This document shows, piece by piece, positions 3,001-40,080 of a DNA stretch of 64,000 bases. The DNA comes from Candidatus Woesearchaeota archaeon (lineage in GTDB: Archaea; Nanobdellota; Nanobdellia; Pacearchaeales; GW2011-AR1), in the NCBI GenBank assembly GCA_964612685.1, contig CAZTCF010000002.1, positions 212 to 64,211 of the forward strand, in the 5' to 3' direction. The notes below the pieces were generated by a model. The model saw only the letters and a list, made by a program, of their open reading frames with translations. It was not told where the DNA came from and made no database searches. The position numbers and the translations under genes were made by a program. Within the stretch, counting starts at the first letter, position 1, and every line of letters begins with the position of its first letter.

Positions 3001-3060
3001 CAATATCTAGAGAACCACATTCAGAACTTCCAGCACCAGGATTCAATATTATTCTTCTGT
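1..3060 (-). repeat. Intragenic tandem duplication of a roughly 1.5-1.65 kb beta-helix module within the giant gene, seen as two diverged copies (about 1640..3060 and about 1..1640)
   Basis: Parallel peptide landmarks sit about 1650 nt apart. NCSYDSE...RWYY(K/Q)AYVNDSSG appears near 1950 and near 300. (N/Y)xNDSN(E/I)FNFTITQN appears near 1650 and near 10. PG(P/A)...C...TLT(E/G)NISS appears near 3050 and near 1600. Confidence 0.6.
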
Positions 3061-6000: not shown

Positions 6001-9000
6001 ACCAAACTTCATATATCTTTAATGTTGACTCTGAATTATTAAGATGTATTTCTGTAAGAAGATTGAAATCTGCAAAACTCCAGTCCCTTTCTGATGTAAC
6101 ATCAAATTCTGTTATCTCTGGTGTTTCACTTGTTGAATTAAATTCATGGGTTAAACCTTGCTCTTCTCCTCCATTAGAGCTTGCCCAATGTAAATACCCT
6201 ATTGTGTCATAACTTAATTTAGAATGAATAACTTTTACCTTTACTGAATTTATTATACCTGCTACGCTCACTCCAGAAGTTTTTATTGTTAAGAGAGGAT
6301 TAACTGCATTTATTCCTGAAGAAGTATCATTATTATTATCATAAGAGTTAAGATAATTAACCACCCTGTTAGTTTCAATTGTACCTTTTGCAGCAGGCCT
6401 TATTATTGCAACATTTGAGATTGTTTGAGGATTTTGTCCTAATGAATAATTTAAATTATCTATCTCAATTATTGCTCCCTCAACTTCCAAATTATCTGTA
6501 ATATTTGCTGTTAAACTTAGGTTTTCTCCTTCTCTAATTGTTGACGGAATACTCACTGAATTTATTACAGGAACTTGAGATTCATTATAAGTTATGTTTA
6601 ACTGAGGTCTGATTGTAGCGTTAATATTATCACTTGAAGGGAAATGCCATTGTCCATGTCCGTTTTCACCATAAAGTATAATCCCATAATTTTCGTAAGT
6701 TCCATTAACCCAGTTCTGTACTAACTGAGTTATATCCAATGTATAATAAGTTCCTGCTGTTGTTAAATTTCTAATTGCCCATACTCTTGAATCAAAATCC
6801 CCTCCAGGGATATCCCAACTTTCTGTTCCGCTTCTGTTAGTCCAGGTTACTCCATCATAAGTATTCTGGCTATCCCCTGTACCCTCAATCCAGCTGTTAT
6901 TTATCCTATAAACACTTATGGGATTAGTTCCTGTTCCTGCAGAAGATAAATAGAAAGTAAGATTTGCATTAACAATATTTGCTGTTTCTGTTACATCGGA
7001 TAAATCAAATTCTAGCAACATTCTTTCTGTGTTACTTATTATCATAGAAGTAGATGCGCCAAAATTTCTGTTTGGAGTTGAACTATCAATATGAGCATCT
7101 TTTCCTTCTGTCCCTAATTGGATAGTTATCAAAAATGTCTGATTGGATAAATGAGGAACAATCCATTCAACATAATCATAAAATCCGTTATTATCTTTGT
7201 CTTCAACCCTCTCTGCAGGAAGGTAAACTTCTTCTTCAATCCAATATATTTTCAGTTCAGAAGGACTTCTTATATCCAAACTTTCACTTAAATTTGTAAA
7301 TGCTAAAACATTTTCATAATGAACCTCTTCAGAACCTGCAATTATTACTTTCTTTCCTTTTTCAGTTTCTTCTTCAGAAGAGTATGGTGCAGGAGTTTCA
7401 TACTCAATTTCATATAAGTCAGAATTATCTTCAATCAATACTTCTATTGAGTTTGATCTTTCTTTAATTTTTTTATTTTCAGTAAGAAGCTTCCCTTGGG
7501 AAGGACTCGACTCTTCTTTTTGAGAAGCTTCTTTTTCTGAATATGATTCCCTATCAATAATCTTGCTAACACTAATTTTCTCAGAACCCTTTGGAAGTTC
7601 AATTTTAACATTCCCTTTTTCAGGAAGTTCAATTTGCTTTTTCCATTTTACTGGCTGTCCAAGAACTGCATCATACTGAATAGTGTTTATTGTAATATTT
7701 TCCAAGATAATAGGAACTTCTTCCAGAATAATAGAATAATCAATACTCCCTAGCCTTAGTGTAGCATTTCCTTCTATCTCCACCCTTAAAGTATAAGAAG
7801 AATTTGTTAAACTCAATTTTTCAAGATTGCATGTATCTTCACAAACCCCATTAAAGATATTTTCAGTTAGAGACTCCTCCTGGGAAGGACTCGACTCTTC
7901 TTTTGAAGGAGTCTCTGTTTCTGAATATGATATATTGGATTGTGTTTCATTGCTTTCCTGTTCATAAGTAACATTTGTTTGAACTTCTCTCTCATTAGTT
8001 TCAATATCTTCTGTTTGATTTCTCTGGGGGTATGATTGATTTGTTTCAGTTAGAGACTCCTCCTGGGAAGGACTCGACTCTTCTTTTGAAGGAGTCTCTG
8101 TTTCTGAATATGAAATCGATTCGTTTTCTGTTTGAGGCGTATCATCCAAAGTCTTATCTAAACTTTCAGAAGCTTGAGGTTCCTCCTGGGAAGGACTCGA
8201 CTCTTCTTGCAAAGGAACCTCGCTCTCTATCTTCTCTTCTGAATATGATACTTCTGATGAAATTGTTTGAGAATTTGTAGTTTCAGTTAGAGACTCCTCC
8301 TGGGAAGGACTCGAATCTTCTTTTGAAGGAGTCTCTGTTTCTGAATATGAATCTTCTGAAGTAGTTGTCTGAGAATCTGTTGTTATTGTTTCGGTTTCTT
8401 CAATAATCATTCCGGTTAAAGGAGAATTATATTTTGGAGAACTTGATTTCGATTTAATCTTTGAACTATCCAATATTAACAAATCATTGAGATAAACTTT
8501 AATCTCTCCCTCTCCTTTTATCTCACCATTAATTTTAACTGAACTTAATTGTCCAGGATTTTCTAAGTTCAATTCATAATTTGTAGATTCATTAGTTATC
8601 AGTCCAATTATCTGTGAATACTCTTGTTCCTGAAATCCTTCACCCACAAAAAATCCTGTTAACCCAATACTAGAATAATCTAAAGAAAGAGCAGCAAAAA
8701 TAAACCCTCCTAAAAATAGAACTCCAAAAAATAAAGCTAAAACTCTGTTCCTTATTACCTTTGCCTTTTGTCTCTCGATCGCCTTTTCGCAGTTCTTAGA
8801 ATAATTTTCATAATAATCAACCCACTCTTTTATGTTTCTTCCATTGGTTTTTTTCGTGAGCGTCTCTACATATTTTGCCCCAGAAATCTGTTTATTTGCA
8901 TGTGCTTGATTTAATCTTTTTAAATAATCAACAAGCTCATTTTTTCTGCTTTGAGAAGCCTCTTTATTTCTTTGTAAACTACTAACTAGTGCCTTTGCTA

Positions 9001-9016
9001 ATCGAGTCCTTCCCAT
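1..9016 (-). CDS. Giant cell-surface protein (more than 3005 aa in window; C-terminus lies beyond the window start). Has N-terminal cytoplasmic region plus one TM helix, acidic tandem repeats, a Gly-rich tract and tandem parallel beta-helix (PbH1-like) modules
   Basis: Manual translation of the minus strand from ATG at 9016..9014 (preceded by in-frame TAA at 9022..9020) runs with no stop to position 2, in the frame whose top base is 1 mod 3. The protein begins MGRTRLAKALVSSLQRNKEAS..., with a hydrophobic helix VLALFFGVLFLGGFIFAALSL. Repeats of SYSETETPSKEESSPSQEESLTE follow, then a Gly-rich block (GGGGAGGGSISSGYGGGGGAGG), then many N-x-[ST]-rich beta-helix-like repeats (NITLYNITGGSEYGLIVNGTTNSNFTYISFNNITIAG...). 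All listed ORFs in 1..9000 are short and fall in other frames. It is absent from the ORF track because it is incomplete. Confidence 0.8.
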   Translation of the reverse strand, partial: MGRTRLAKALVSSLQRNKEASQSRKNELVDYLKRLNQAHANKQISGAKYVETLTKKTNGRNIKEWVDYYENYSKNCEKAIERQKAKVIRNRVLALFFGVLFLGGFIFAALSLDYSSIGLTGFFVGEGFQEQEYSQIIGLITNESTNYELNLENPGQLSSVKINGEIKGEGEIKVYLNDLLILDSSKIKSKSSSPKYNSPLTGMIIEETETITTDSQTTTSEDSYSETETPSKEDSSPSQEESLTETTNSQTISSEVSYSEEKIESEVPLQEESSPSQEEPQASESLDKTLDDTPQTENESISYSETETPSKEESSPSQEESLTETNQSYPQRNQTEDIETNEREVQTNVTYEQESNETQSNISYSETETPSKEESSPSQEESLTENIFNGVCEDTCNLEKLSLTNSSYTLRVEIEGNATLRLGSIDYSIILEEVPIILENITINTIQYDAVLGQPVKWKKQIELPEKGNVKIELPKGSEKISVSKIIDRESYSEKEASQKEESSPSQGKLLTENKKIKERSNSIEVLIEDNSDLYEIEYETPAPYSSEEETEKGKKVIIAGSEEVHYENVLAFTNLSESLDIRSPSELKIYWIEEEVYLPAERVEDKDNNGFYDYVEWIVPHLSNQTFLITIQLGTEGKDAHIDSSTPNRNFGASTSMIISNTERMLLEFDLSDVTETANIVNANLTFYLSSAGTGTNPISVYRINNSWIEGTGDSQNTYDGVTWTNRSGTESWDIPGGDFDSRVWAIRNLTTAGTYYTLDITQLVQNWVNGTYENYGIILYGENGHGQWHFPSSDNINATIRPQLNITYNESQVPVINSVSIPSTIREGENLSLTANITDNLEVEGAIIEIDNLNYSLGQNPQTISNVAIIRPAAKGTIETNRVVNYLNSYDNNNDTSSGINAVNPLLTIKTSGVSVAGIINSVKVKVIHSKLSYDTIGYLHWASSNGGEEQGLTHEFNSTSETPEITEFDVTSERDWSFADFNLLTEIHLNNSESTLKIYEVWFEVNYTTPASNDLWNGTINTSGLSAGNYTYTIFANDSSDNLGSIIGNITVLPPLVLMNVSLNDAQGNFQEAEVIIYNTESQEVEMNSTMTESELISVEEGEKDILINPVGNPIFQIEYENTLIENYTEGIIDIDQPSEVENFTNVYALNPHLNTNATVTVFATGNELYKCQDWNFTEQTCYGEWIKVMDITPGETYNFTLNPEDPAFAEVIVIIFAHHLNSTRDFISDIYQEVVLLDDIWSEEIPDGDYVRVTFESNLTSDRDITVYPRIVSGTPRIEIYEVNESTLIAEFNPIINNSYNKRFLTSLIGEQDTFDLRIIGGSVEFDYIVDPPDYLSCVSGTCIAVFNITTGANTWQVPTEVTEIMIEAWGGGGAGGGSISSGYGGGGGAGGQYAKRNLTVTPSTTFNIFIASSITGGTGDGSQGYNTSFFNSTGNYVVAMGGEGGKGGINKAAGAGGLGSISGGVGTTIYGGGNGYTGSSSGGGGGGGSGTTGWGGNSTSATGGIGTSIGGGDGGAGNTDASGDAGLNYGGAGGGGEKAGGTNGVGGTGAQGMLKITYAEPVDLTSPQYNSVSVNNTLAGQITNFAINVTDNIALHPNGQYIFSTNNTGAWVNDSAVNFTSTPSWANVTKTLNSTSGAIIGYRWYFKDSYSTPNYNSTPVYTLTTTPYYGILNVSIILPANDSGYFTGNTNLTINASVTCVGGAYCGTVSATARYNLSSASPDTNINISEGGSPFYNLGSGGEDIYVYNFSGITNPSSTHKATNGSCSSFVSFQPNNQYEFYNEGYSNLVFIDGFVTKTSLPSGFGSNKPYEKFDFKILESKDSINEINLSIYGRSYSSSDYQFTVFVYNYSGGIMGDPWKQVSSINLEGFQYHNLTFNKTTSLKIDDIIGSDGIIQILVKGNSDSLTTSIEVDFIEIKVNGSRGASNPQTSSAVLNEGESFYPNWTINVTSTTPNQEYLLDVLFNSSYGNSNVLDNNTEDRRIILNPGAGSSECGSLDIENKSCTLTGNISSLENGFNITAQNITLDCGGYYIIGDNVENSKGILINSSNITIRDCKFSNFPIDVYVENADNITLYNITGGSEYGLIVNGTTNSNFTYISFNNITIAGILVTNNSHGNTFTDININSSAHGIYIDRGQNNTFDCANGLINYSINGVDARYGIYTNQFNTTIRNCNIIDGNRSGGYLSRRGIYLDNGDNSTLFNNYVNTSNSQAIYLSSSDYVNLTNNSAFASSNQGIRISSSSRNILINNNVISSSQYATALTSGSSNNTLINHTAIATSDSIRFESSSNNNIFINTNTSGRYGFHFEDSSYNNITDCIYVSGSTNDVYAEFETISSTGNIFLNCSYDSENTTGEGNQIIRRWYYKAYVNDSSGNAVEGANITAYNTTGDIQFTALTNLTGHILVQNITEYVNTSGTVSYYNNYTVNASKIGYINDSNEFNFTITQNKVDDFMTLEIPGPADCTTIGNSGTLDVEGQTYTLTENISSQGTCLTVSAANVTVDCNGYWITFSTGGAIGTRGVYTNQFNTTVKNCRILDGNWTNADPWRAGVFFTIGADYGLIQNVSTNVSNCHGIDINGGSGIRVVNSTGRTKEYHGIIIWTDTSNITIINSTGISNTSAGKGIYGNNNSIYNSTGQSTYDGYGFYIDSASNNLISGCNASSNLNHGIYLRNSTNNTLISNNATSSSSGGIVINSYSSNNTLIGNNATSNTGSGIYILAFSNNNTLLRNNATTNSVSGQAIYIYNSSYMNLTENKATSTSSSGIYIEESSDNNTLTSNNGTSYAADNFGIVLGTSSNNILINNTGMNVNNGIGIYVAGSSNNNTLINNTGISSIGQGIYLFSNYNNTFINQRASGNLGIFMVNVNWTTFRDCIDISGTTFDVNLFSTPLSKNNTFINCSYDSETVGGTDNELIRKWYYQAYVNDSSGSAVSDANVSAYNATGVLQSTAQTNASGWIARQEVTEYVNNAGTRSYYNNYSIFANKSGYTNDSNIFNFTITQN
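7480..8350 (-). repeat. In-frame tandem coding repeats (about 66-nt conserved core, at least 5 copies, variable spacing) inside the giant gene, encoding an acidic Ser/Glu/Thr/Pro-rich unit
   Basis: The core ...agactcctcctgggaaggactcgactcttcttttgaaggagtctctgtttctgaatatga... recurs near 7491, 7861, 8041, 8181 and 8281. Each copy translates to ISYSETETPSKEESSPSQEESLTE on the minus strand. Confidence 0.8.
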
Positions 9017-9119
9017 TACTTATTATTTATGTAATATACCTTATAAATATATCTATTATTTATTAAAAATACTTATTATATATGTATAAATAATAAACAG
9101 AAATTTGTAGTTATAATAA

Positions 9120-9132
9120 CATTTATAAAACA
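9120..9132 (+). promoter_or_regulatory. Putative archaeal TATA box for a leaderless glyS transcript; the giant gene diverges from the same AT-rich region
   Basis: tttataaaa lies about 25 nt upstream of the GlyRS ATG at 9151. Additional TATA-like ttataaat boxes at 9040-9060 face the minus-strand giant gene. Confidence 0.3.
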
Positions 9133-9150
9133 AAATGTAGTTATCAAAAC

Positions 9151-21208: not shown

Positions 21209-21844
21209 ATGAAAAAACCAATCATTGTAATAAATCTTAAAACATATCAACAAGGTGAAAAATCAGTTAAAATTGCAAAGGAAATTGAGAGAGTTGATAA
21301 AAATATAATTCTGGGAGTTCAAGCAAGTGATATTTATGAGATTGCAAAGAAAACAAAACTTAAAGTTTATGCACAACATGTTGATCCCTTTGAACCCGGC
21401 AGAAATACTGGATATATCCTGCCGGAAGCTGTAAAGAAAGACAAAGCAATAGGAGCTTTCCTTAATCATTCGGAACACAAGCTAACTCTAGATGTAATAA
21501 AAAAAACCATTGCACGTTGTAAAAAAATAAAACTAAAGACAATGGTTTTTGTGAAAGATATTAAACAAGCTAAAGAAATTGAAAAACTCCACCCAGACTA
21601 TCTTATATACGAACCTCCAGAACTTGTAGCAGGAAATATTTCCATTAGCTCAGCAAAGCCTGAAATAATTAAGAATCTTTCAAAGAAGTTAAAGAAAACA
21701 ACACCCTTCCTGGTTGGTGCTGGAATAAAAACCCGAGAAGACATAACCCTATCAATGAAGTTAGGAGCATCAGGCATTGCAGTCTCTTCAGCAATAACAC
21801 AGGCTAAGATACCTGGAAAGAAATTGAAGGAACTTATAGCTTAA
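21209..21844 (+). CDS. tpiA: Triosephosphate isomerase, short archaeal type
   Basis: 211 aa. PIIVINLKTY, NHSEHK and IYEPPELVAGNISISSAKPE match the archaeal TIM signature (EPPELIGTG variant). Confidence 0.8.
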   Translation: MKKPIIVINLKTYQQGEKSVKIAKEIERVDKNIILGVQASDIYEIAKKTKLKVYAQHVDPFEPGRNTGYILPEAVKKDKAIGAFLNHSEHKLTLDVIKKTIARCKKIKLKTMVFVKDIKQAKEIEKLHPDYLIYEPPELVAGNISISSAKPEIIKNLSKKLKKTTPFLVGAGIKTREDITLSMKLGASGIAVSSAITQAKIPGKKLKELIA

Positions 21845-22176
21845 TACTTAAATCTCTTTTCGTATGTTTTATGATCCATCCATTCTAGAACAATTGAGAG
21901 AACTTCAATTCCATCTCTACCTACAGAATAAATAAGTCTCCATCCTCTTGGTAAATCATATTTCCATAAATTATCTATATTATATTTTGAAACATAAATT
22001 GGAGGTATTAATCTCTTGGGTATTTGTATGCCTGAGAAAGCATTTAATTTTAAGTTATCCAAAGCTTGTTTTACATGATTATACAATTGTTGTTCTTCTA
22101 ATTTACCTTTTTTTAGTTCTTCTAGACTTTTTCTAAGACTTTCTTCTGCAAAAAATACTTTAGATTTTATTTCCAT
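21841..22176 (-). CDS. RelE/ParE-superfamily toxin-like protein with N-terminal extension
   Basis: C-terminal half LPRGWRLIYSVGRDGIEVLSIVLEWMDHKTYEKRF resembles the RelE/YoeB core (yRiiYei...H.K.Y). Overlaps the upstream partner ORF by 10 nt. Confidence 0.5.
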   Translation of the reverse strand: MEIKSKVFFAEESLRKSLEELKKGKLEEQQLYNHVKQALDNLKLNAFSGIQIPKRLIPPIYVSKYNIDNLWKYDLPRGWRLIYSVGRDGIEVLSIVLEWMDHKTYEKRFKY

Positions 22177-22436
22177 TCTAAATTCTGTTTTTTAAGATAT
22201 TTTTTTACCAGTATTGGATTCCAAATCCAACCTATTTTTCCTTCTCTGTCTACGGCTATCCTATTGGAATAAAGCAGATAATCAATAATAACTGAAAATG
22301 TTTGGTACATCATCTTTTTTGGGAGTCTTAACCAGAGTTGTTTTTTGGTAAATTCTCCGCTAGTTTGATAAATTAATCTTTCTACCATTAATACACTATC
22401 TAAACGAGGATAGTGCAATATTTTTTGAATATCCAT
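22167..22436 (-). CDS. Hypothetical 89-aa protein, upstream partner of the RelE-like gene (candidate antitoxin of unrecognised family)
   Basis: Co-oriented, overlapping the toxin-like gene, TATA-like tttataaattt upstream. No recognisable RHH/HTH motif seen. Confidence 0.35.
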   Translation of the reverse strand: MDIQKILHYPRLDSVLMVERLIYQTSGEFTKKQLWLRLPKKMMYQTFSVIIDYLLYSNRIAVDREGKIGWIWNPILVKKYLKKQNLEWK

Positions 22437-22505
22437 GGTTATATATACTTATATACCTTTATAAATTTTATTATTCTATATTTTAAGAAGAAACTTTAAA
22501 ATCAT

Positions 22506-23171
22506 TTGATTCTTGGAAAGAGTATGCCTTACAAATTATCTCCATCATCTTTATCTTTAATGAATGAATGTCCAAGATGTTTCTGGCTAGATAAGCATAA
22601 TGTCTGGAAAAGACCCTCAGGTATTTTCCCCTCTCTTCCTTCTGGAATGGATGGAATATTGAAAACTCATTTTGATAAGTTCAGAGATAAAGGAATATTA
22701 CCTCCTGAGCTGTGCGATAATGGAGAGTGCACAAATATGAAATTATTCAATGAACCTGAATTAATGAAATCCTGGAGAAATAATCTTAAAGGAATAAGAT
22801 GGGAAGATAAAAAAGGGAATATATTATTTGGAGCAGTTGATAATATACTCCAGAAAGGAGAAAAGTTAATTGTTTTAGATTATAAAACAAGAGGATACCC
22901 TGTAAAAGATGATACAGCAGAACATTACCAGAATCAGTTAGACATTTACAATTTCTTGCTTAGAAAAAACGGATATAAAACAGAAGATTATGCTTTTTTG
23001 TTGTTTTATATTCCTAAAGAAGTCGCAGATACAGGAGAAATAATTTTTGATACAACATTAAAGAAGATGAAAATATATGTGAAGAATGCAGAGGATATAT
23101 TCAACAAAGCAATTAAGCTATTAGATGAAGATTGTCCAACTAAAACTTGTGAGTGGTGTGAGGGAAGATAA
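22506..23171 (+). CDS. Cas4-like PD-(D/E)XK nuclease with Fe-S cysteine cluster (RecB-family, DUF83-like). No cas/CRISPR context
   Basis: N-terminal CPRC, C-terminal C-x4-C-x2-C (CPTKTCEWC), D...DYK motif (LIVLDYKTRG) and QNQLDIY (QxxxY) motif, in that order as in Cas4/AddB nuclease domains. Confidence 0.6.
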   Translation: MILGKSMPYKLSPSSLSLMNECPRCFWLDKHNVWKRPSGIFPSLPSGMDGILKTHFDKFRDKGILPPELCDNGECTNMKLFNEPELMKSWRNNLKGIRWEDKKGNILFGAVDNILQKGEKLIVLDYKTRGYPVKDDTAEHYQNQLDIYNFLLRKNGYKTEDYAFLLFYIPKEVADTGEIIFDTTLKKMKIYVKNAEDIFNKAIKLLDEDCPTKTCEWCEGR

Positions 23172-23847
23172 GATGATAAAGGCCATCCTCTTTGATATTG
23201 ATAACACTCTAATTGATTTCATGAAAATGAAAGAAAAGAGCTGCGAAGCAGCTGTTGAAGCAATGATTTCTAAAGGGTTAAAAATGAAGAAGCAAGAAGC
23301 TATGAAAGAGATTTATAGCATATATGATAAAAGAGGAATGGAGTATAGAGATGTTTTTGAGAAAATAATAAAGAAAGGAAATGGAAAAATAGATTACAAA
23401 ATAATGGCTTCTGGTGTTCTTGCATATAGAAAGGCCAAGGAAAATCATCTTATCACATATCCTGGAGTTACAAGTACATTAACTAAACTGAAAAAGAAGT
23501 ATAAATTAGCAATTGTAAGTGATGCTCCAAGTATGAAAGCCTGGACAAGACTAATTTCAACGGATATTGATAAATTCTTTGATGTAATTATAACAAGAGG
23601 GGATGTTAAGAAGCAAAAGAATTCTTTTGTTCCATTTAATGCTGCATTGAAAAGATTGAACATTAAACCAGAAGAAGCTATTATGGTTGGAGATAGAATT
23701 GAAAGAGATATTCACACTGCAAAGAAGCTTGGAATAAACACATGCCTCGCAAGATATGGTATAGAAAATCCTCCCGCACGAGGGGAAAGCGGAGCGGATT
23801 TTGAAATTGATGATGTTAGGGAGTTGGTGAGAGTTGTTGAAAAGTAG
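23172..23847 (+). CDS. HAD-superfamily hydrolase (phosphatase-like)
   Basis: Motif I FDIDNTLIDF right after the proposed start MIKAIL, motif II IVSDAP, motif IV VGDRIERDIHTAKKLG. The track ORF start at 23125 overlaps the upstream gene; 23172 is the likelier start. Confidence 0.75.
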
Positions 23848-23860
23848 ATAATTAATTTAG

Positions 23861-23903
23861 AACTTATCCCTCTTCCCATACCTCGTATGCAGCAACTTCT
23901 TCA
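23861..23903 (-). repeat. Copy 1 of a conserved 3-prime-end element (consensus on + strand about aattaatt...T(A/C)TCCCTCTTCCCATAC(C/T)T(C/T)GTATGCAGCA(A/G)CTT)
   Basis: Lies directly after the TGA stop of the 23901..25100 gene, in the 53-nt gap between convergent genes. Confidence 0.8.
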
Positions 23904-25100
23904 GAACCTCTCCCTCAACACAAACGCCAATATAACAAACCCCGCAACTATCGCAATACCTATTATTAAACTAGGTAAAAGCAAATTATTTTTTAGATTA
24001 GATTCCTGTTCAGAAGTAACTTCTCCAGTAATTGTAGGTTTATTTCCAGGAGGTATTTGAATTGGAGTTGATTCAGTTGTAACTTTTGTATTTGTATATT
24101 CTGTAGTTTCTGTATATTCTTCAGTTTCAGGAGGTTCTTCTTGAATTAATATTTTCTGTTTTTGAGGCTCTGGTAATGAGGTTATATAAAATAAATCTAA
24201 CCCCTCTGTAGCAGTTGTTCCAGAAGTTCTATCCCTTGCACTTCTAGAAAACTTAACCATTACATTGATTCCTGCAGATTGCCTAATATTAGTTGCTGCT
24301 TCTATCAATTCATTTCCTATTATGACTCCAATTTCTATATTTGAAGATTTTATGTATTCTATTATCTTTGAAGGAGCATTATCTTCTTCTATAAGGATAA
24401 GTACGTTTTTTCCCTGCATTATTTCTTTTTCTATAAATTCTCCACTGCTTAAAATTACTTGAGCTATTGAACCAACTTTTTCGTATTTTTTTACAATTTC
24501 TATATTATTTTCAAATTTATCTCCAGTATCTATTCTTTCTGGATTGTATTTGGATAATTGGTTTGTAATTTCCGGATCAAGATATCCATAAATAAGCAAG
24601 TTATTTACATTTCTGCTTGAGAGTATTGTATCTATTTCATTTATATTATCTTTATTTGCTAAGAATACCCAGGAGTTTGTTTCAAAAGCATAAGCAACTA
24701 CTGCCATTGCATTATATCCATAAGAATCTTCAACAACAATGAAATTTTTTATTCCATATAATTCCTCAATAAGATCCAAGTTTGCTGAAGAAACATCTAT
24801 CTCCTCGACTGAATTAAAACCATTTGAAATTGCTAATGAAGAATAATCTTGAATAATTGGATTATATCTTGAGGTGATAATTAGTAAATCATAATCTTTA
24901 TCTATATCTTGGAGTAAAGCTAATCCATTATCCGAATTAACTAAAAAATCTGAATCTAACCCCATAAAATTTGAATATAATATTGAAGAATAAACATCCC
25001 TCCAATCTGCTGAATTTGAAATAACATAATTCTCTGCACTAACAAAGTTTAAGGTAAAAAGTATAAATAAGAAAGGGATAATCATTAACTTATTTTTCAT
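23901..25100 (-). CDS. Secreted protein with N-terminal signal peptide, Thr/Glu/Pro-rich linker and C-terminal TM anchor. Ends ...LRERF
   Basis: MKNKLMIIPFLFILFTLNFVSAENYV signal. C-terminus LLLPSLIIGIAIVAGFVILAFVLRERF. Confidence 0.55.
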   Translation of the reverse strand: MKNKLMIIPFLFILFTLNFVSAENYVISNSADWRDVYSSILYSNFMGLDSDFLVNSDNGLALLQDIDKDYDLLIITSRYNPIIQDYSSLAISNGFNSVEEIDVSSANLDLIEELYGIKNFIVVEDSYGYNAMAVVAYAFETNSWVFLANKDNINEIDTILSSRNVNNLLIYGYLDPEITNQLSKYNPERIDTGDKFENNIEIVKKYEKVGSIAQVILSSGEFIEKEIMQGKNVLILIEEDNAPSKIIEYIKSSNIEIGVIIGNELIEAATNIRQSAGINVMVKFSRSARDRTSGTTATEGLDLFYITSLPEPQKQKILIQEEPPETEEYTETTEYTNTKVTTESTPIQIPPGNKPTITGEVTSEQESNLKNNLLLPSLIIGIAIVAGFVILAFVLRERF

Positions 25101-25217
25101 ATTCTTTTTAATATAAAGAATTATTTAAGGTTTATTGCAGTTAAAAAAGTCTCTTTCTAAAACCTCTCCTCTCCCCACAACAACAATCCTTAAAAATGGT
25201 TTTGGTATGATTTTTCT

Positions 25218-25415
25218 ATGAATAAAAAAACATTAAAGAGATTTGATTTAGAAAAATATGTTGCAGGAGGCACTCTTAAAGTTAGTTTAGGAAATCATAT
25301 TGATTTAGATAATATTGTTTTACCTGCTAATCAGGAAGGATATTTAATTTATATTAAGTATAATAAAGAAGAAAAGAAATACAAATTCTCAGTTTATGAA
25401 AAGAAGAAAGAATAA
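25218..25415 (+). CDS. Hypothetical small protein (65 aa)
   Basis: An ORF only, antisense-oriented between two minus-strand genes, no recognisable motif. Confidence 0.25.
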   Translation: MNKKTLKRFDLEKYVAGGTLKVSLGNHIDLDNIVLPANQEGYLIYIKYNKEEKKYKFSVYEKKKE

Positions 25416-25485
25416 TTATTATTTTTAAGTCATCTAACTCATTTTAAAATAATGGAATTGCTGTGATAGATAATTTAATTTCTTA

Positions 25486-25530
25486 GAATTTATCCCTCTT
25501 CCCATACTTTGTATGCAGCAGCTTTTCTTA
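25486..25530 (-). repeat. Copy 2 of the conserved 3-prime-end element
   Basis: gaatttatccctcttcccatactttgtatgcagcagcttttctta lies directly after the serpin TAA stop (25535) and is preceded by gataatttaattt, as in copy 1. Confidence 0.8.
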
Positions 25531-25534
25531 AAAT

Positions 25535-27133
25535 TTATCTGGGATCAACAACTTTTCCAATGAACAGAATATTTCCAGTTTCCTTTTCCTGAATTATAAA
25601 TATAAACGGATGATCTGCCCTAAACTCTATAAATCTTGGCATTGCAGCTCCAAAACCCATACTGACTATAGTTGCTGCAGCTGCTTCTGTGCCTTCTTCA
25701 TAAACATCAATGTAAGCCTTGTGCAGGACTTCATCAATGTAAAGCATTTCTGTTCCATCTATTCCTGAAAAATCTGCACCTGGCCAGACAAAAGGAAGGC
25801 TCATCCCCATACTTTTTAGATAATCTGTTAATGAATAAGTTGTTTCAAAATGATATTTTGGAAGATAAATAAAAACTATTTCAGGTTCCATTTCGCTTCT
25901 CCACTCCTTGAGTTTTTCTTCACTTAAAATTGATTCTAAGTGTGTAATGTTGCTGAGAGAGAGGTTTTCATTTAATCCAAATTCATATTTATAGTAATTG
26001 TATTCATCATCTTCAGAAGCTTCTGTTCTTGGAAGAAGTACTAGCATGGATATTTTGTCTCCCTTATAAGGCATTTCAAGTATCTGAATTCCATCAGATT
26101 CGCAGTAGTTGAATTTCAATTCATCATCCCTAAGTTGCATCGTAGGAATTTGTACTTTTTTACCTGATTCAAGAGTAAAATCTTTTTGTTTTGTATCTTT
26201 TTTATCAAACTGATGTTCCCACTTTCCTTTGAAATAAATAGCATTAGTCAGAACAGCGCGTGTTAAAGGATCAAACATGTTAGGAGAAGCTATATTCTTT
26301 ATTTTATTGTTTGTATTCTTTGAGACCCAATTATTTATTTCAGAACTTGCTTGCCCGGGATTTTTTACAAAATCAAGAGTATTAACGTTTCCTAGATAAT
26401 ACCTGCTTATTGTATCTTTGTACTCCTGTAAAAAAGGATAATCTTCCTGTAACCAGATTGCATTTGCTGTACTTAATTGGTATTTTCCTCCTCCTTTATT
26501 TATTGTGTTTAACATATTTGCATAAGAAGATCTTCTTAAAGAATCCTCTTCAGGGAAATAGAATACATTTTGGATTTCATTAGCTGTTTCTCCTCTGGCC
26601 CCTTCATATACCATTGCCATTGCGTTCGATATACTCCATGGAGAAAAAAAGATATTTCCTTCAGAATCATCTTTTATTTTAGAATATAAATCAATAGAAA
26701 ACTGATTGTTCGCTCTTACTGCCTCTTCTACTCCTTCTGCTGTTGCTCCTCTATCATCTGCAGCTTTAACAAAAATATCACTCATTCCAAGATTAAAAAA
26801 ACTATACAACAAAATTCCTATTAATATTATTAAACTTAAAACAATCAATTTCTTTTTATTCCAGTTTATCTTGTTTTCGAGGATCCCAAAAAATGCAATT
26901 AAGCTACAAGAAATAAGATAAAACCAAAGAATATCTAATATTAATCCAAGAAGCATTCCAATTATTCCAAACATGCCAAAGAAAAATATAGGAAATATCA
27001 TTATATATAATATAATAAGGGGTATTTTTGTCAACCCCGTACTTTCAGATTTGAAAAACAAAAAAACCGCAAAAGCCAAAAGAAGAATTGTCAAAGCTAT
27101 TTTTTTCCAGTTACATTTAAAGAATTCACCCAT
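25535..27133 (-). CDS. Serpin (inhibitory-type serine protease inhibitor) fused to an N-terminal polytopic membrane domain (about 3-4 TM helices)
   Basis: Serpin core motifs NAIYFKGKWEHQFDKKDT, a hinge/RCL EEGTEAAAATIVSMGFGAAMPRF and a C-terminal FRADHPFIFIIQEKETGNILFIGKVVDP. The N-terminal 120 aa is strongly hydrophobic (IALTILLLAFAVFLFF, IPLIILYIMIFPIFFFGMFGIIGMLLGLIL, LIVLSLIILIGILLYSFF). Confidence 0.8.
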   Translation of the reverse strand: MGEFFKCNWKKIALTILLLAFAVFLFFKSESTGLTKIPLIILYIMIFPIFFFGMFGIIGMLLGLILDILWFYLISCSLIAFFGILENKINWNKKKLIVLSLIILIGILLYSFFNLGMSDIFVKAADDRGATAEGVEEAVRANNQFSIDLYSKIKDDSEGNIFFSPWSISNAMAMVYEGARGETANEIQNVFYFPEEDSLRRSSYANMLNTINKGGGKYQLSTANAIWLQEDYPFLQEYKDTISRYYLGNVNTLDFVKNPGQASSEINNWVSKNTNNKIKNIASPNMFDPLTRAVLTNAIYFKGKWEHQFDKKDTKQKDFTLESGKKVQIPTMQLRDDELKFNYCESDGIQILEMPYKGDKISMLVLLPRTEASEDDEYNYYKYEFGLNENLSLSNITHLESILSEEKLKEWRSEMEPEIVFIYLPKYHFETTYSLTDYLKSMGMSLPFVWPGADFSGIDGTEMLYIDEVLHKAYIDVYEEGTEAAAATIVSMGFGAAMPRFIEFRADHPFIFIIQEKETGNILFIGKVVDPR

Positions 27134-27214
27134 AGTTATTATAATATTTTTATCTTTAAAAAATGTTTTATTACAGATATCTTGGATAAATATACTTTAC
27201 AATTAATTATTTCC

Positions 27215-27260
27215 CTAAAACCTCTCCCTCTTCCCATACTTCGTATGCAGCAACTTTTCT
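27215..27260 (-). repeat. Copy 3 of the conserved 3-prime-end element, here inside the coding 3-prime end of hydA (encodes ...LLHTKYGKRERF*)
   Basis: cctctccctcttcccatacttcgtatgcagcaacttttctgc with aattaatt upstream. About 90% identical to copies 1 and 2 over about 35 nt. Confidence 0.8.
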
Positions 27261-28921
27261 GCTTTCTTGCTAAGTGGCTGTCCTAGATACTTCTTGTAAA
27301 TATCTTTCACAATTGGATTTTCATGAGAACGTCTGTATTCACGCATACTGTCTTGCTTGTAAAGTGCTTGAGCTCTAAGTGTTAGCACTTTATCATCAGA
27401 GTATATTGGTTGTCCTCCTCCACCCACACATCCTCCAGGACAAGCCATCATTTCAATGAAATCATATTTGTCTTTATTTCTTAGAAGCTTTCTTATATTT
27501 GCTCCTCCAGACGCTGTAGCATAACGTATTTTTCTTCCATTAAGCATTATTGTCCCCTCTCTTATACTGCTATCTTTTGTTCTTAGATTTTGAAATTCAA
27601 CTTTTTCGAGACGTTTTTTTGTTGAGAGTTCATATGCTGTTCTTAATGCAGCTTCCATAACCCCTCCAGCTGCCCCAAAAATATCTCCTGCCCCACTTGC
27701 TAATCCCAGTGTTGGATCAAAATTGGAATCTTCTAGATTTGCAAAATCAATATTTTTTTGTTTTATTAATCTTCCAAGCTCTCTTGTTGTTAAAACATAA
27801 TCAACTCCTGTTTCTAATTCTGGTCTTGTTGACTCAAACTTCTTTGCTGTACATGGCATTATGCTCACCACGATTATATCCTTAGGATTAATCTTTGCAA
27901 GTTCTGCATAATAACTTTTTATTAACATCCCAGACATTTCATGAGGAGATTTACATGTTGACATATTAGGTATTAATTCTGGATAAAAGAATTCCATCAT
28001 TAATATCCAAGATGGACAGCAAGTTGTAATTAAAGGAAGCACTGCTTTTTTCCCCTGTTTCAATCTTTTAAGAAGTTCAGCTGATTCTTCCATTATTGTC
28101 ATATCTGCTCCTAAGTCAACATCAAAAACTTTATTGAAACCACATTTCTTTAAAGCAGAAACCATTTTTCCTGTAACTAAAGTTCCTGCAGGCATATCAA
28201 ATAATTCTCCTAGGCTTGCCCTTACTGCAGGAGCTGTCTGAGCTACAACATGCTTTTTAGGATTGTTTAATGCTTTGATAACTTCAGGAAGATGTGTACG
28301 TTCACTTATAGCCCCAACAGGACAATTAATTAAACACTGTCCACATTCAATACATGCAACATCTTCTAATTTCTTTTCATCGTATGGGGTTACATGTTCA
28401 TTATGAGCTCTACTTGAAAAGTCAATAGCATATATTTCTTGAATTTTACCACACACCTGAACACATTTACCACAATTAATACATTTATTGTTGTCTCTTA
28501 TTATTGCAGCACCTAAATCTGGATGATAATCTTTAATTGATTTGAATCTTTCATATTCAATTCCAATCTGGTCATACACTTCCTTTGCTTCAAAATCCCC
28601 TCCTAATTCTTTATATTCGATATCTGGACTCATTAATTCAAGATTGATTTTTCTTGATTTGATTATTTTTTCAGAATTAGTTACAATTACTGCATTCTCA
28701 ATAGGCTTTGTTGAACAAGACGTAACTAATTTTCCATTCATCTCAACTAAACACACCCTACATCTTGCTTCAGGAAAAAGATTTTTGTGGAAGCAGAGGG
28801 TTGGAATTTTGATATCGTTTTCTTTACAAATTGTTAAAATTGTTTTATTTGGGTCCACATCAAGTTGTTTGTTGTCTAGGGTTATTTTCATTTTAATGTT
28901 TGTAAAACTCTCCTTGCCCAT
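27215..28921 (-). CDS. hydA: [FeFe]-hydrogenase catalytic subunit HydA, multi-cluster form (N-terminal 2Fe-2S + His-ligated 4Fe-4S + 2x4Fe-4S + H-cluster domain)
   Basis: H-cluster motifs L1 ITTCCPSW, L2 IMPCTAKKFE and L3 IEMMACPGGCVGGGGQP. N-terminal plant-ferredoxin-like C-x11-C-x2-C...C, NuoG-like H-x3-C-x2-C-x5-C (HPDLG...CINCGKCVQVC), and CIECGQCLINCP ferredoxin motif. Confidence 0.85.
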   Translation of the reverse strand: MGKESFTNIKMKITLDNKQLDVDPNKTILTICKENDIKIPTLCFHKNLFPEARCRVCLVEMNGKLVTSCSTKPIENAVIVTNSEKIIKSRKINLELMSPDIEYKELGGDFEAKEVYDQIGIEYERFKSIKDYHPDLGAAIIRDNNKCINCGKCVQVCGKIQEIYAIDFSSRAHNEHVTPYDEKKLEDVACIECGQCLINCPVGAISERTHLPEVIKALNNPKKHVVAQTAPAVRASLGELFDMPAGTLVTGKMVSALKKCGFNKVFDVDLGADMTIMEESAELLKRLKQGKKAVLPLITTCCPSWILMMEFFYPELIPNMSTCKSPHEMSGMLIKSYYAELAKINPKDIIVVSIMPCTAKKFESTRPELETGVDYVLTTRELGRLIKQKNIDFANLEDSNFDPTLGLASGAGDIFGAAGGVMEAALRTAYELSTKKRLEKVEFQNLRTKDSSIREGTIMLNGRKIRYATASGGANIRKLLRNKDKYDFIEMMACPGGCVGGGGQPIYSDDKVLTLRAQALYKQDSMREYRRSHENPIVKDIYKKYLGQPLSKKAEKLLHTKYGKRERF

Positions 28922-29106
28922 TTTCTATCAGACTCTTTTTCTTTTTCAGATAATTTTGAATAAGGTTGTTTTATTTGTTTTTTCCATCTTTCTATATTTT
29001 CTTTTGTAAGATTCTTAAGCATATAATTAGTCCAGTGGGCCCATTGCTTATGTTCTAGATTAGCTAACTTTTCTATTAACGTTTTATCTTCTTGATTTAT
29101 TTTCAT
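28888..29106 (-). CDS. Small Trp/Lys/Glu-rich protein (72 aa from MKINQEDKTL...) encoded between hydB and hydA, translationally coupled
   Basis: ATG at 29106..29104 overlaps the hydB TGA stop (29105..29103) as ATGA. Its 3-prime end overlaps the hydA start by 34 nt. The track's longer 28888..29190 ORF extends into the hydB coding region. Confidence 0.4.
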   Translation of the reverse strand: MKINQEDKTLIEKLANLEHKQWAHWTNYMLKNLTKENIERWKKQIKQPYSKLSEKEKESDRKWARRVLQTLK

Positions 29107-30239
29107 TTTTTGATATACTCCATGTAATCCCCTTTGAAGTGTTCTAATGAAGTGAGTATATGAGCTGTTGAAGATTGTCCTAACCCGCACAAGCTAGTTT
29201 CTTTTATATGATATGAAAGCTCTTTCAACATCTCTAAATCTTTTTCATTTGCTTTTCTATCTCTAATCTTTTTTAGAATATTCAATACTCTGATTGTCCC
29301 CTCTCTACATGGAGTGCATTTTCCACATGATTCGTAAGTGTAAAATTTAGCTATACTTAAACAAATATCCACAATATTCCTATTTTTTCCTATAAAGATA
29401 ATTGTAAATGCTCCGTGCTGACAATCTTCTTTACATATCGTTTCAGTTGTTACCAACGAATTCTTATCTATAGGCATTATCCCACCAAAACATCCAAAGG
29501 AGAGAGCTTTTATTTCCTGAGTTGGTTTAACCGTATCAAGAATTGTTGACATCTTAACTCCTAACTCCCATTCATATATACCTGGATTTTCAACATCCCC
29601 TGAAATTGAAAAAAGCCTCAGATTTGGATTCCAATCTTTGTAAAGTAAAGCTTGTGCAACACAAGTAAGTGTTTCAACATTATTCAAAACAGTTGGACTC
29701 TCCCATAATCCCTCTTCAGTAGGGTAAGGGGGTTTGTACATTGATTGTCCTCTATATCCCATAATTGATTGCATTATTGCAGTCTCCTCCCCACAAATAT
29801 ATGCTCCTGCCCCTCTTACTATTTCAATCTCAACCTTATTTTGCATTTTAGATTTTTTAATTACTTCTTGAATTGTGTTTTCTAAATCTTCTCTTAAAAA
29901 TTCATACTCATTTCTTAAGTAAATAAATGCTCTTTTTACGCCTAGGACATAAGAAGCAATTAAGATGCCCTCAATTAAAGTTTCTGGATTATTTTTTAAA
30001 ATAAATCTATCCTTGAATGTTCCAGGTTCTCCCTCATCAGCATTACATATAAGATAAATTTCTTTAGATTTATTCTTTTTTTTACTATTAAGAGCAAGCT
30101 TCCACTTTTTTGCGAGTGGAAAGCTTGCACCACCTCTTCCTACCAAAGATTTTTTTTCAAGAATTTGTAGTACTTTTTCTGGCCCTAATTCTTTTGCAAG
30201 TTTCAATGCTTCAAGGTTTGTTTCTCTTAATATTTGCAT
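29103..30239 (-). CDS. hydB: NuoF-like NAD(P)H-binding flavoprotein subunit of the hydrogenase (HydB, minimal 378-aa form)
   Basis: GRGGASFPLAKKW (FMN/NADH region, like the NuoF GRGGAGFPTG.KW) and the 4Fe-4S motif ESCGKCTPCREGT. Confidence 0.8.
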   Translation of the reverse strand: MQILRETNLEALKLAKELGPEKVLQILEKKSLVGRGGASFPLAKKWKLALNSKKKNKSKEIYLICNADEGEPGTFKDRFILKNNPETLIEGILIASYVLGVKRAFIYLRNEYEFLREDLENTIQEVIKKSKMQNKVEIEIVRGAGAYICGEETAIMQSIMGYRGQSMYKPPYPTEEGLWESPTVLNNVETLTCVAQALLYKDWNPNLRLFSISGDVENPGIYEWELGVKMSTILDTVKPTQEIKALSFGCFGGIMPIDKNSLVTTETICKEDCQHGAFTIIFIGKNRNIVDICLSIAKFYTYESCGKCTPCREGTIRVLNILKKIRDRKANEKDLEMLKELSYHIKETSLCGLGQSSTAHILTSLEHFKGDYMEYIKK

Positions 30240-30275: not shown

Positions 30276-30722
30276 CTATTTCTTCTTCAATTCATTTAAT
30301 AGCTTCTTTACTCTTTCGATAGTTAATTTGGTAAGGGGTTTTCCATTAAGAAGCATTGCAGGAGGTTCATCACAACATCCTATGCATGAAGTTTTATACA
30401 CTGAGAATTTCTTGTCTTTTGTTGTTTCACCAATTTTAATTTTGAGTTCTTTCTCAATGAACCTCTCTATATCCCTGCTTTCATTTAACACGCAAGTAGG
30501 TGAACCGCACAACTCAATTATGTATTTTCCTTGAGGTTCTGTTCTGAACATAGTGTAGAATTTAACAACCCCATATATTCTAGATATAGGAATTTGATAT
30601 TTGGTGCTAATTTGTTTCATTGCATCCACAGAAATATATCCTTTTTTATCCTGCTCCTCATGAAGAATGTTAAGCAAGATATCCTCTTTTTTCTCCCCTT
30701 TTTTTTCTTGTTTTTTCATCAT
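30276..30722 (-). CDS. hydC: NuoE-like thioredoxin-fold 2Fe-2S subunit (HydC)
   Basis: 148 aa, CGSPTCVLNESRD ... SCIGCCDEPP cysteine pattern of NuoE/HoxE. First gene of the hydC-hydB-x-hydA string. Confidence 0.75.
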   Translation of the reverse strand: MMKKQEKKGEKKEDILLNILHEEQDKKGYISVDAMKQISTKYQIPISRIYGVVKFYTMFRTEPQGKYIIELCGSPTCVLNESRDIERFIEKELKIKIGETTKDKKFSVYKTSCIGCCDEPPAMLLNGKPLTKLTIERVKKLLNELKKK

Positions 30723-39977: not shown

Positions 39978-39980
39978 AAT

Positions 39981-40080
39981 AGCCCCACCAGGATTCGAAC
40001 CTGGGTCCCGGCCTCTCTTCATCTTATCTATTTTCAAGATACCAAAGGGCCGTATACTTGACCACTGTACTATGGGGCTA
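39981..40080 (-). tRNA. tRNA-Gln (anticodon TTG) containing a 27-nt intron at the canonical 37/38 position
   Basis: Minus strand AGCCCCA-TA-GTAC-AGTGGTCAA-GTAT-A-CGGCC-CTTTGG[TATCTTGAAAATAGATAAGATGAAGAG]A-GGCCG-GGAC-CCAGG-TTCGAAT-CCTGG-TGGGGCT-A. The exons give a 73-nt cloverleaf with archaeal A1-U72. Confidence 0.7.

Follow-up and report, generated by a model that had tools for sequence, protein, structure and literature searches.

A stretch of 64,000 nt from contig CAZTCF010000002.1 of a Candidatus Woesearchaeota archaeon (hereafter the window) contained a hydrogenase operon, hyd, and, at and beyond the 3′ end of its [FeFe]-hydrogenase gene hydA, an array of single genes alternating with copies of a short direct repeat. 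The repeats, the operon and the genes lying between hydA and the conserved gene tpiA are listed in Table 1. An initial annotation, made from the sequence alone, had described three plus-strand copies at the 3′ ends of genes, and this was confirmed. A degenerate 32 nt consensus had exactly three exact matches in the window, all on the plus strand (23867-23898, 25493-25524 and 27225-27256), and matched none of 100 dinucleotide-preserving shuffles. The positions of the copies relative to the genes held as well: copy 3 was inside the end of hydA, copy 2 past the serpin stop codon and copy 1 at the stop codon of an open reading frame (ORF) of 399 aa. The repeat family could be extended to 59 nt (23844-23902, 25470-25528 and 27202-27260), its members being 75-81% identical and spaced by 1626 and 1732 nt. 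In the 42 nt equivalent to the last 13 hydA codons and the stop, copy 3 agreed with copy 2 at 35/42 positions and with copy 1 at 37/42.

Two partial copies were also recovered. The local alignment of partial repeat r to copy 3 had 20/22 matching positions and ran on into the tail of a displaced end in another species (pseudo-end C of L098; L-numbers, P0012 and P0016 denote related loci). Its score was among the top 4 of 1094 window chunks, and the other top chunks were repeat copies or overlapped them. The second partial copy, r2, was read from an exact 13-nt run (GAGGGAGAGGTT plus one) common to the end of the 399-aa ORF and the end of copy 3. Copy 1 begins right at the stop codon (23901) of this ORF, and r2 accounts for the remark in the initial annotation that the gene ends in LRERF*, which was correct. 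The chance expectation of three direct copies of 45-60 nt and two partial remnants in the window is none. An identical array layout was found in more than 10 independent contigs (ENA, JGI, Logan and NCBI), and the array is therefore not an assembly artefact.

Table 1. Genes and repeat copies at the hydA locus of the window
Feature	Position	Strand	Support
Repeat copy 3: native hydA 3′ end (EKLLHTKYGKRERF*, stop 27215-27217) and AT-rich tail of about 15 nt	27200..27259	-	
Repeat copy 2: displaced hydA end, in hydA frame (stop)EKLLHTKYGKRDKF*; begins 7-8 nt past the serpin stop	25469..25527	-	
Repeat copy 1: displaced hydA end KKLLHTRYGKRDKF*; mosaic, left part copy 3-like, right part copy 2-like	23847..23902	-	
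Partial repeat r: right half of a hydA end (TGGGGAGA-GGAGAGGTTTTAG and AAAGAGA tail), 50-77 nt upstream of the 399-aa gene	25150..25177	-	Local alignment
Partial repeat r2: last five codons and stop of the 399-aa ORF (RERF*, AGGGAGAGGTTCTGA), from the right end of a hydA end	23901..23915	-	Read from sequence
hydC-like, NuoE-type 2Fe-2S thioredoxin-like ferredoxin, first gene of the hyd operon	30276..30722	-	Pfam PF01257, E=1e-43; syntenic in all relatives
hydB-like, NuoF-type FMN/NADH subunit	29103..30239	-	Pfam PF01512, PF10589; syntenic in all relatives
hydA, group A [FeFe] hydrogenase catalytic subunit, 568 aa	27215..28921	-	Pfam Fe_hyd_lg_C, E=1e-90; Fe_hyd_SSU
Cassette 1 cargo: serpin with N-terminal membrane-spanning extension	25535..27133	-	Pfam Serpin, E=1.6e-115
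Cassette 2 cargo: 65-aa ORF, opposite strand	25218..25415	+	Gene-called in independent contigs
Cassette 3 cargo: 399-aa predicted secreted protein, N-terminal signal-like segment, C-terminal membrane anchor	23901..25100	-	ORF and translation
HAD-type hydrolase (TIGR02253 family), convergent with copy 1, stops 11 nt apart	23173..23847	+	Pfam HAD_2; NCBIfam 179.9 bits (cut-off 169.75)
Cas4-like PD-(D/E)XK nuclease gene, presence variable among strains	22506..23171	+	Pfam PDDEXK_1; weak Cas4 match
Two small ORFs (89 and 111 aa), putative toxin-antitoxin-like pair, last genes of the inserted interval	21841..22436	-	
tpiA (triosephosphate isomerase), conserved gene, far border of the insertion hot spot	21209..21844	+	tblastn synteny; Pfam TIM in relatives

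Repeats derived from the hydA 3′ end

All three copies shared the hydA reading frame and stop position, and copies 1 and 2 read KLLHT[K/R]YGKRDKF*. Their hydA-frame translations were KLLHTKYGKRERF, KLLHTKYGKRDKF and KLLHTRYGKRDKF, and copy 3 in gene orientation read ...AEKLLHTKYGKRERF. The LLHT.Y motif lies in the conserved small-subunit-like domain that closes group A [FeFe] hydrogenases (Pfam Fe_hyd_SSU). In the window this domain was complete (residues 510-565, profile positions 1-56 of 56), hydA had its full reading frame, and its homologues carried the NCBI name “[FeFe] hydrogenase, group A”. The native, functional 3′ end of hydA is copy 3. The other two copies are displaced hydA 3′ ends and not parts of the serpin or the 399-aa gene, and both partial remnants are displaced ends as well. 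Only the end of hydA was duplicated in the window, while the ends of tpiA and of the HAD, PDDEXK, serpin, hydB, hydC, 89-aa and 111-aa ORFs were single-copy.

The differences between the copies followed the hydA codons. Pooled over the three comparisons there were 10 synonymous differences at about 24 synonymous sites and 5 non-synonymous differences at about 93 sites (pN/pS about 0.13, Fisher p = 3.5e-5), a pattern that held even between one pseudo-copy and another. Stop-to-stop changes were included, there were no indels, and all residues of the pseudo-copies fell within the variation of native HydA C-termini in relatives. As the differences were mostly synonymous or conservative, each copy must have evolved as a working hydA end, and the three are similar because they descend from the hydA coding 3′ end. 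The initial annotation had dismissed a protein-coding C-terminus shared in the same frame, on the grounds that the neighbouring ORFs differed in frame. That dismissal was wrong, since all copies keep the frame and stop of hydA.

A core of 15 nt was invariant across the three window copies. Copy 1 was mosaic around it, with the informative sites on the left as in copy 3 (TTG, ACG) and those on the right as in copy 2 (GAT AAR TTC TAA). This mosaic pattern places a crossover in the invariant core GTATGGGAAGAGGGA, and such a reciprocal hybrid is what reciprocal integration of a molecule with a single repeat would be expected to leave.

The initial annotation had alternatively proposed a conserved 3′ untranslated region (UTR) or terminator. 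A functional 3′ UTR, terminator or RNA-stability module at three gene ends would agree with the location of the copies on the 3′ side of three co-oriented genes and with their 5-bp hairpin and AT-rich tail. This explanation was effectively refuted. The hairpin with a variable loop, CATAC-NNN-GTATG, proved to be a codon artefact (the codon string CAT-ACN-NNG-TAT-G), and the palindrome was absent from the L012 copies (CATACAAAATACA). Single-strand DNA folds of both strands of the three copies gave only the 5-bp stem, at -1.9 to -3.9 kcal/mol and with z-scores from -2.4 to +0.65, so that the fold was not significant. RNAalifold returned no consensus pairs over 8 copies, a terminator search gave no terminator-like site at any copy, and an Rfam gathering scan of the window detected two tRNAs only and no family at the repeat. 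Conservation followed the hydA codon frame including the stop, and no copy was present at any other gene end in the window. The “aattaatt” tail that had been counted as part of the element was a generic stop/stop junction, found at other convergent gene pairs too (hydA/tpiA in L011 and L015, serpin/PDDEXK in L109). The repeats are best explained as having no RNA or protein role of their own.

Two further candidates were rejected. An attC site or palindromic core was rejected for lack of an inverted-repeat core and of an attC-like fold. An insertion sequence (IS) or miniature inverted-repeat transposable element (MITE) was rejected because the copies were all direct, with no terminal inverted repeats or inverted partner and no dispersed copies. 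Neither inverted repeats nor dispersed copies were detected in the window or in about 50 related loci.

The hydA/tpiA junction in related species

A HydA scan of species-representative genomes yielded about 30 DPANN loci. Searches for repeat copies and for recombinases extended over the 64 kb of the window genome and over flanks of up to 10 kb in relatives. In the closest other species (L011, HydA 91% identity), tpiA was convergent with hydA and separated from it by 0-5 nt. The same distance was seen in L013, L015, L016 and the contexts of P0012 and P0016, the two genes were adjacent and about 30 nt apart in L034, and flanking synteny was kept on both sides in relatives. This conserved adjacency with its flanking synteny indicates that hydA and tpiA were ancestrally adjacent and that window positions 21845-27214 (about 5.4 kb) are inserted DNA. 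Six of about 12 close species had differing DNA at the junction. Three of them, the window species, L012 and L098, had arrays, and in the others the junction held a type I restriction-modification system (L102), ThiF with small ORFs (L095) or a short-chain dehydrogenase (SDR, L103), and these three insertions were without the repeat. The hydA/tpiA junction is a hot spot for insertions within this Woesearchaeota (DPANN) clade.

Two more species of the clade had independent arrays of hydA ends at this junction, with different cargo, making three species with the window. In L012/L104 (HydA 84%), the native end was followed by a 99-aa ORF, a truncated copy, a histidine phosphatase gene and a 155-nt hydA fragment with an 8-nt deletion, inside which the phosphatase ORF ended. 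In L098-L101 (HydA 87%), the native end ...SYKKKDRF* was followed by a 155-aa ORF that began 2 nt past the hydA stop, a pseudo-end (ELLHTKYGKRERF), a reverse-oriented 220-aa ORF and a second pseudo-end (KKLLHTEYGKRERF). The cassette-like layout of gene, repeat, gene, repeat noted initially was real and recurred in these two species with differing cargo. The location of the repeats at recombination junctions was likewise supported.

The L098 pseudo-ends were 92% identical to the native end of the window, as against about 69% to the native end of L098 itself, and window copy 1 matched the L095 native end in 13/14 residues. These matches indicate that hydA ends have moved between lineages. Within one array, copy C of L012 (12974-13030, in the 155-nt fragment) agreed with the resident native end at 42/42 positions in L012 and at 39/42 in L104. 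The native ends of these two strains, which are 99.8% identical, read KKKDKF in L012 (11686) and KKKDRF in L104 (11683). The identity of the L012 native end with its downstream pseudo-copy suggests gene conversion between array copies.

The near-identity of copy C to its resident native end would also be expected from a recent local duplication. Duplication of the target in place, either through staggered cutting and filling-in by an enzyme like a transposase or through template switching during replication that set a copy of the hydA end on each side of foreign DNA, and subsequent divergence in situ, is nevertheless a very improbable origin for the repeats. Non-coding copies drifting in place would not be expected to show synonymous-biased divergence, and the L098 pseudo-ends resemble the native end of another species far more than their own. 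Moreover, lengths of 45-155 nt far exceed known target-site duplications, and there were no terminal inverted repeats.

Every copy found, in the window and in about 50 related archaeal loci, was directly downstream of hydA. Six variants of the repeat, searched by blastn-short in the window and in 41 archaeal loci, matched only hydA ends and arrays. When 68 hydA loci (about 45 of them bacterial) were each scanned with their own native end, extra copies were recovered only in the window and in the L012 species. A scan of metagenome DNA with CATACNNNGTATGGGAAGAGGGA gave 4 matches, all of them chance matches in unrelated coding frames, and the collection evidently did not include the window species. 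In IMG/VR, neither three viral DNA-pattern scans nor one protein scan with the HydA C-terminus gave a match. These searches did not support a reading of the repeat as an independent mobile element or as a recombination site dispersed over the genome. Confinement to three copies, together with synteny of the intervening genes, had been named initially as evidence against a cassette array; no copy was indeed found outside the array, but the intervening genes were not syntenic in relatives.

The serpin gene gave an independent view of the insert limits. Its closest homologues (82-85% identity) were in other DPANN genomes, in unrelated contexts and without the repeat, and the DNA homology began only about 40-50 nt before the ATG and ended at the stop codon. 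The inserted unit was by these limits little more than a promoter and a gene, placed between two hydA ends. Judged from its sequence relatives, the serpin cargo is foreign to the hydA site. We are highly confident of the general claim that displaced hydA ends mark insertion junctions.

Proposed recombination at the hydA end

We consider it probable, the choice of agent being included in this judgement, that the displaced hydA ends are junction scars of successive single-gene insertions, most likely made by host homologous recombination. Each incoming DNA would have recombined with the chromosome inside the last 45 nt or so of hydA, with the crossover within the invariant core. hydA would keep its complete frame, and a second copy of its end would be left on the far side of the new gene. 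Repetition of these steps would yield the order hydA end, serpin, end, ORF65, partial end, 399-aa gene, end. The repeats would act like the direct repeats of attachment sites and, being direct, would permit clean loss or circularisation of a cassette. The insertion itself could be a Campbell-type integration of a circle with one repeat, an ends-in integration of a repeat-flanked fragment, or homology-facilitated illegitimate recombination (HFIR) anchored in hydA.

Several observations bear on the agent. Junction positions varied (155, about 45, about 25 and 15 nt before the stop), and cargo ORFs ran into hydA-derived sequence in both the 399-aa gene (RERF*) and the L012 phosphatase. Only the hydA end was duplicated, the ends of the other island genes being single-copy. 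A tyrosine or serine recombinase, for which the initial annotation had suggested a search nearby, was not among the approximately 48 ORFs of the window, and no recombinase family (Pfam) was detected in these or in the island ORFs of L012, L095 and L098 (a 10 kb island in L098). A RadA gene was present in the window. L005 (CAYPLY010000011.1; HydA 95% identical) had 100% identity with the window over about 4.2 kb (27399-23173), comprising the whole array and the HAD gene. Outside this tract the hyd operon and the tpiA side differed by 3-12%, with further alternation of identical and divergent tracts, and the left breakpoint was inside hydA, more than 140 nt upstream of the repeat. Either the island was transferred recently between lineages by recombination, or the co-assembly is chimeric. 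From the variable junctions, the cargo fusions, the lack of a recombinase and of a palindromic core or fold, the repeat-less insertions, RadA and the L005 tract taken together, we infer that host recombination is the favoured agent.

A number of points weigh against this reading. The starts of five of the short pseudo-ends, spread over three species, coincide to about 5 nt (GA[A/G]AAG|CTGCT), and cargo stop codons lie 0-8 nt before pseudo-ends. Boundaries this precise would be more readily expected of site-specific recombination, or of descent from a single ancestral pseudo-end, than of random illegitimate joining. Common descent from one ancestral unit, spread by recombination, would also account for the shared boundary. 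The scheme does not account for the origin of the first unit of gene and hydA end. No cargo protein had a homologue in either of the other arrays. Within each of the window, L012 and L098 species, all contigs had one layout, with no gain or loss of a cassette, and neither a circular intermediate nor an empty site was found. Because there was no turnover within species, mobility follows only from the comparison between species. L005 is a co-assembled metagenome-assembled genome (MAG), and its mosaic identity could be an assembly chimera. Finally, the searches for copies and recombinases were limited to the extent given above.

The precise boundaries favour a dedicated integron-like system. A site-specific recombinase encoded in trans, elsewhere in the genome or on a helper element, would use the hydA end as its attachment site and would insert and excise single-gene circles with one copy of the site apiece. 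Single-gene units are packed tightly between the repeats, with cargo stops 0-8 nt before them, the left boundary is alike within about 5 nt in the five pseudo-ends, and the invariant 15-nt core is where the hybrid pattern of copy 1 puts the crossover. Cargo differs between species while the type of site is common to them. Clusters of attC sites lacking an integron integrase (CALINs), which are arrays without a nearby integrase, are common and occur in archaeal MAGs as well (PMC9668308). We still regard such a system as unlikely, given that no recombinase was encoded in the 64-kb window or the 10-kb L098 island, that there was no inverted-repeat core, attC-like fold or consensus structure, and that no viral or plasmid-like contig with the site appeared in the scans. 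Repeat lengths and junction points ranging over 15-155 nt, cargo ORFs fused into hydA-derived sequence and the repeat-less insertions at the same junction (L095, L102 and L103) also speak against it. It is equally doubtful that the native hydA end plays the part of attI and that the hyd operon promoter drives some cassettes, as would suit the first L098 cassette, whose ORF follows the hydA stop by 2 nt and is hence operonic.

Still less likely are att remnants of decayed integrative elements (virus, plasmid or tycheposon-like) that integrated in tandem at the hydA 3′ end, brought a replacement end and later lost integrase and backbone by deletion. Direct repeats of a target 3′ end beside an intact target ORF are the classic signature of such elements, and successive integrations of tycheposons yield arrays of partial target copies (10.1101/2020.12.28.424599). 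The hot spot also holds defence genes in several species (type I restriction-modification system, toxin-antitoxin pair and Cas4-like nuclease). However, all seven inter-repeat units in the three species were 0.4-1.7 kb long, with one gene and no fragment of an integrase or replication gene, and it is unlikely that decay would have left precisely one intact gene in every unit. Nor was there a related element in IMG/VR.

Returning to insertion by recombination, a broader interpretation may be put forward tentatively, as we think it rather doubtful at present. The locus could be a gene-capture platform of Woesearchaeota at the coding 3′ end of a core metabolic gene, where single-gene cassettes with a spare end are inserted, stacked and exchanged between species without a cassette-borne integrase. 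Either the host recombination machinery, using about 45 nt of homology, or an unrecognised trans-acting recombinase could be the agent. If so, the platform would be a functional analogue of an integron built from protein-coding sequence.

Inserted genes and comparison with known systems

Serpins occurred at other DPANN loci too. A serpin 66% identical to that of the window was located upstream of hydC in another Woesearchaeota MAG (L037, 103-1527), and a homologue search returned serpins attributed to several DPANN lineages, on contigs of differing context. In L109, a homologue of the serpin (85%) was convergent with a homologue of the PD-(D/E)XK gene (76%), so that serpin and nuclease are neighbours in two genomes. 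The 65-aa ORF had no Pfam family and a single sub-threshold NCBIfam match (17.9 bits, with a cut-off of 115). Contigs from three samples and two assemblers ended or started near 25258-25263, inside this ORF (L002, L006, L007 and L112), and some contigs broke exactly in repeats (L010 spans 27243-25493 and L009 ends at 23863). These breaks hint at structural variation at the population level or at a coverage problem there. The 399-aa protein had no Pfam or NCBIfam match, and its gene was always found in this array context.

The HAD gene belongs to the inserted DNA and was absent from the loci of other species. In L005, 74 nt stood in place of window positions 22475-23172, so the PD-(D/E)XK gene is a strain-level indel. 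This gene was rejected as a mobility factor, since neither the L012 and L098 arrays nor strain L005 had it and its linkage was not consistent. The pair of small ORFs, of 89 and 111 aa, looks like a toxin-antitoxin module in sequence. Its homologues (42-48% identity) were elsewhere in L098 (3145-3743) and L102 (3161-3759), with a weak Pfam YoeB_toxin match, and downstream of hydA in L022 (4210-4799), thus at differing places around the hyd operon. The base composition of the island did not differ from that of its flanks.

Some other features of the window were recorded. The hydA ORF, with its start at window 28888-28921, has 568 aa as against 555-563 aa in relatives, in which the protein begins MKI(T/I)..., and translation probably starts in fact at the second Met (MKITLDNK). 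Gene callers put a 72-aa ORF with a weak RyR match across the hydB-hydA junction. In the first 9 kb (1-9150) no complete ORF of at least 110 aa was listed, and a 73-nt unit was present five times (66-99% identity) besides other internal repeats, especially at 7477-8353. This ORF-poor region is probably a giant gene running off the end of the window. A 100-nt Rfam tRNA match directly after a CorA gene (39980-40079), uncalled by ARAGORN, is probably an archaeal tRNA with an intron.

The genomes of DPANN archaea are tiny, the cells rely on other cells, and their acquisition of genes is poorly understood. The hydA locus shows reproducible addition of single genes beside a conserved operon without damage to the operon. 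The added genes encode secreted proteins, a protease inhibitor and phosphatases, with defence systems at the same hot spot, and the hydA ends left behind are a readable record of insertion order and donor lineages. Should the process be active, with circles, empty sites and turnover of cassettes, it would amount to integrase-less cassette exchange in archaea. For annotation, the locus is a warning that what looks like a short conserved “element” at the end of a gene may be a coding end that was displaced and not a regulatory RNA.

By the features that define them, the hydA-end array is not a member of the integrons or CALINs, the integrative elements, or the IS and MITE classes, as it has no attC, IntI, integrase within the inserts, inverted repeats or dispersed copies. 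It comes nearest in function to integrative elements that target a gene 3′ end and to the arrays of partial tRNA copies in genomic islands, and in layout to integron or CALIN arrays. In Escherichia coli, e14 and phage 21 reportedly insert into the 3′ end of the protein-coding gene icd and supply a replacement end. As at icd, the hydA inserts are flanked by a duplicate of the target 3′ end in direct orientation, the target ORF is intact, and the displaced copy forms a pseudo-end in the same frame that differs mainly by silent or conservative changes. Unlike e14 and phage 21, the hydA inserts are single genes of 0.4-1.7 kb with no integrase, excisionase or phage genes, and there are several in tandem, in a DPANN archaeal host, with repeat lengths of 15-155 nt.

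The attC sites of integrons are imperfect inverted repeats (R''-L''...L'-R') and form single-stranded hairpins of 57-141 nt. The hydA repeat, by contrast, is derived from coding sequence, lacks the imperfect palindrome, the R''/L''/L'/R' boxes and the single-strand fold, and has copies only at hydA, and no IntI was found. The likeness to integrons and CALINs is in the array, whose cassettes are mostly single-gene and mostly in one orientation, with a repeat after each. In the window these units are the serpin with copy 2, ORF65 with the partial copy and the 399-aa gene with copy 1, and the units of L012 and L098 are analogous. In both systems the newest cassette may adjoin the fixed site, read-through from an upstream operon is possible and a nearby integrase may be lacking. 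Integrons and CALINs have been reported in Archaea, from archaeal MAGs (PMC9668308).

In the tycheposon and tRNA-island arrays of Prochlorococcus, and in tRNA-fragment arrays of genomic islands generally, successive integrations push older inserts inward and leave partial target copies between them (10.1101/2020.12.28.424599). Like these tRNA-fragment arrays, the hydA locus is a hypervariable island beside a conserved gene, with niche and defence cargo. Its target, however, is a protein-coding end and not a tRNA, its units are single genes, and no tyrosine recombinase or replication module was present in or near the arrays.

HFIR has been described in naturally transformable bacteria and in E. 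coli conjugation (PMC3240628). Its usual outcome is deletion and not duplication of recipient DNA, and five left boundaries within about 5 nt, as in the hydA arrays, are not a typical product. In other respects the hydA arrays resemble HFIR, Campbell-type and ends-in integration: a single conserved anchor (hydA) lies on one side only, the far junctions are variable, cargo and recipient sequences are fused, some insertions come without duplication, and a dedicated recombinase is not needed.

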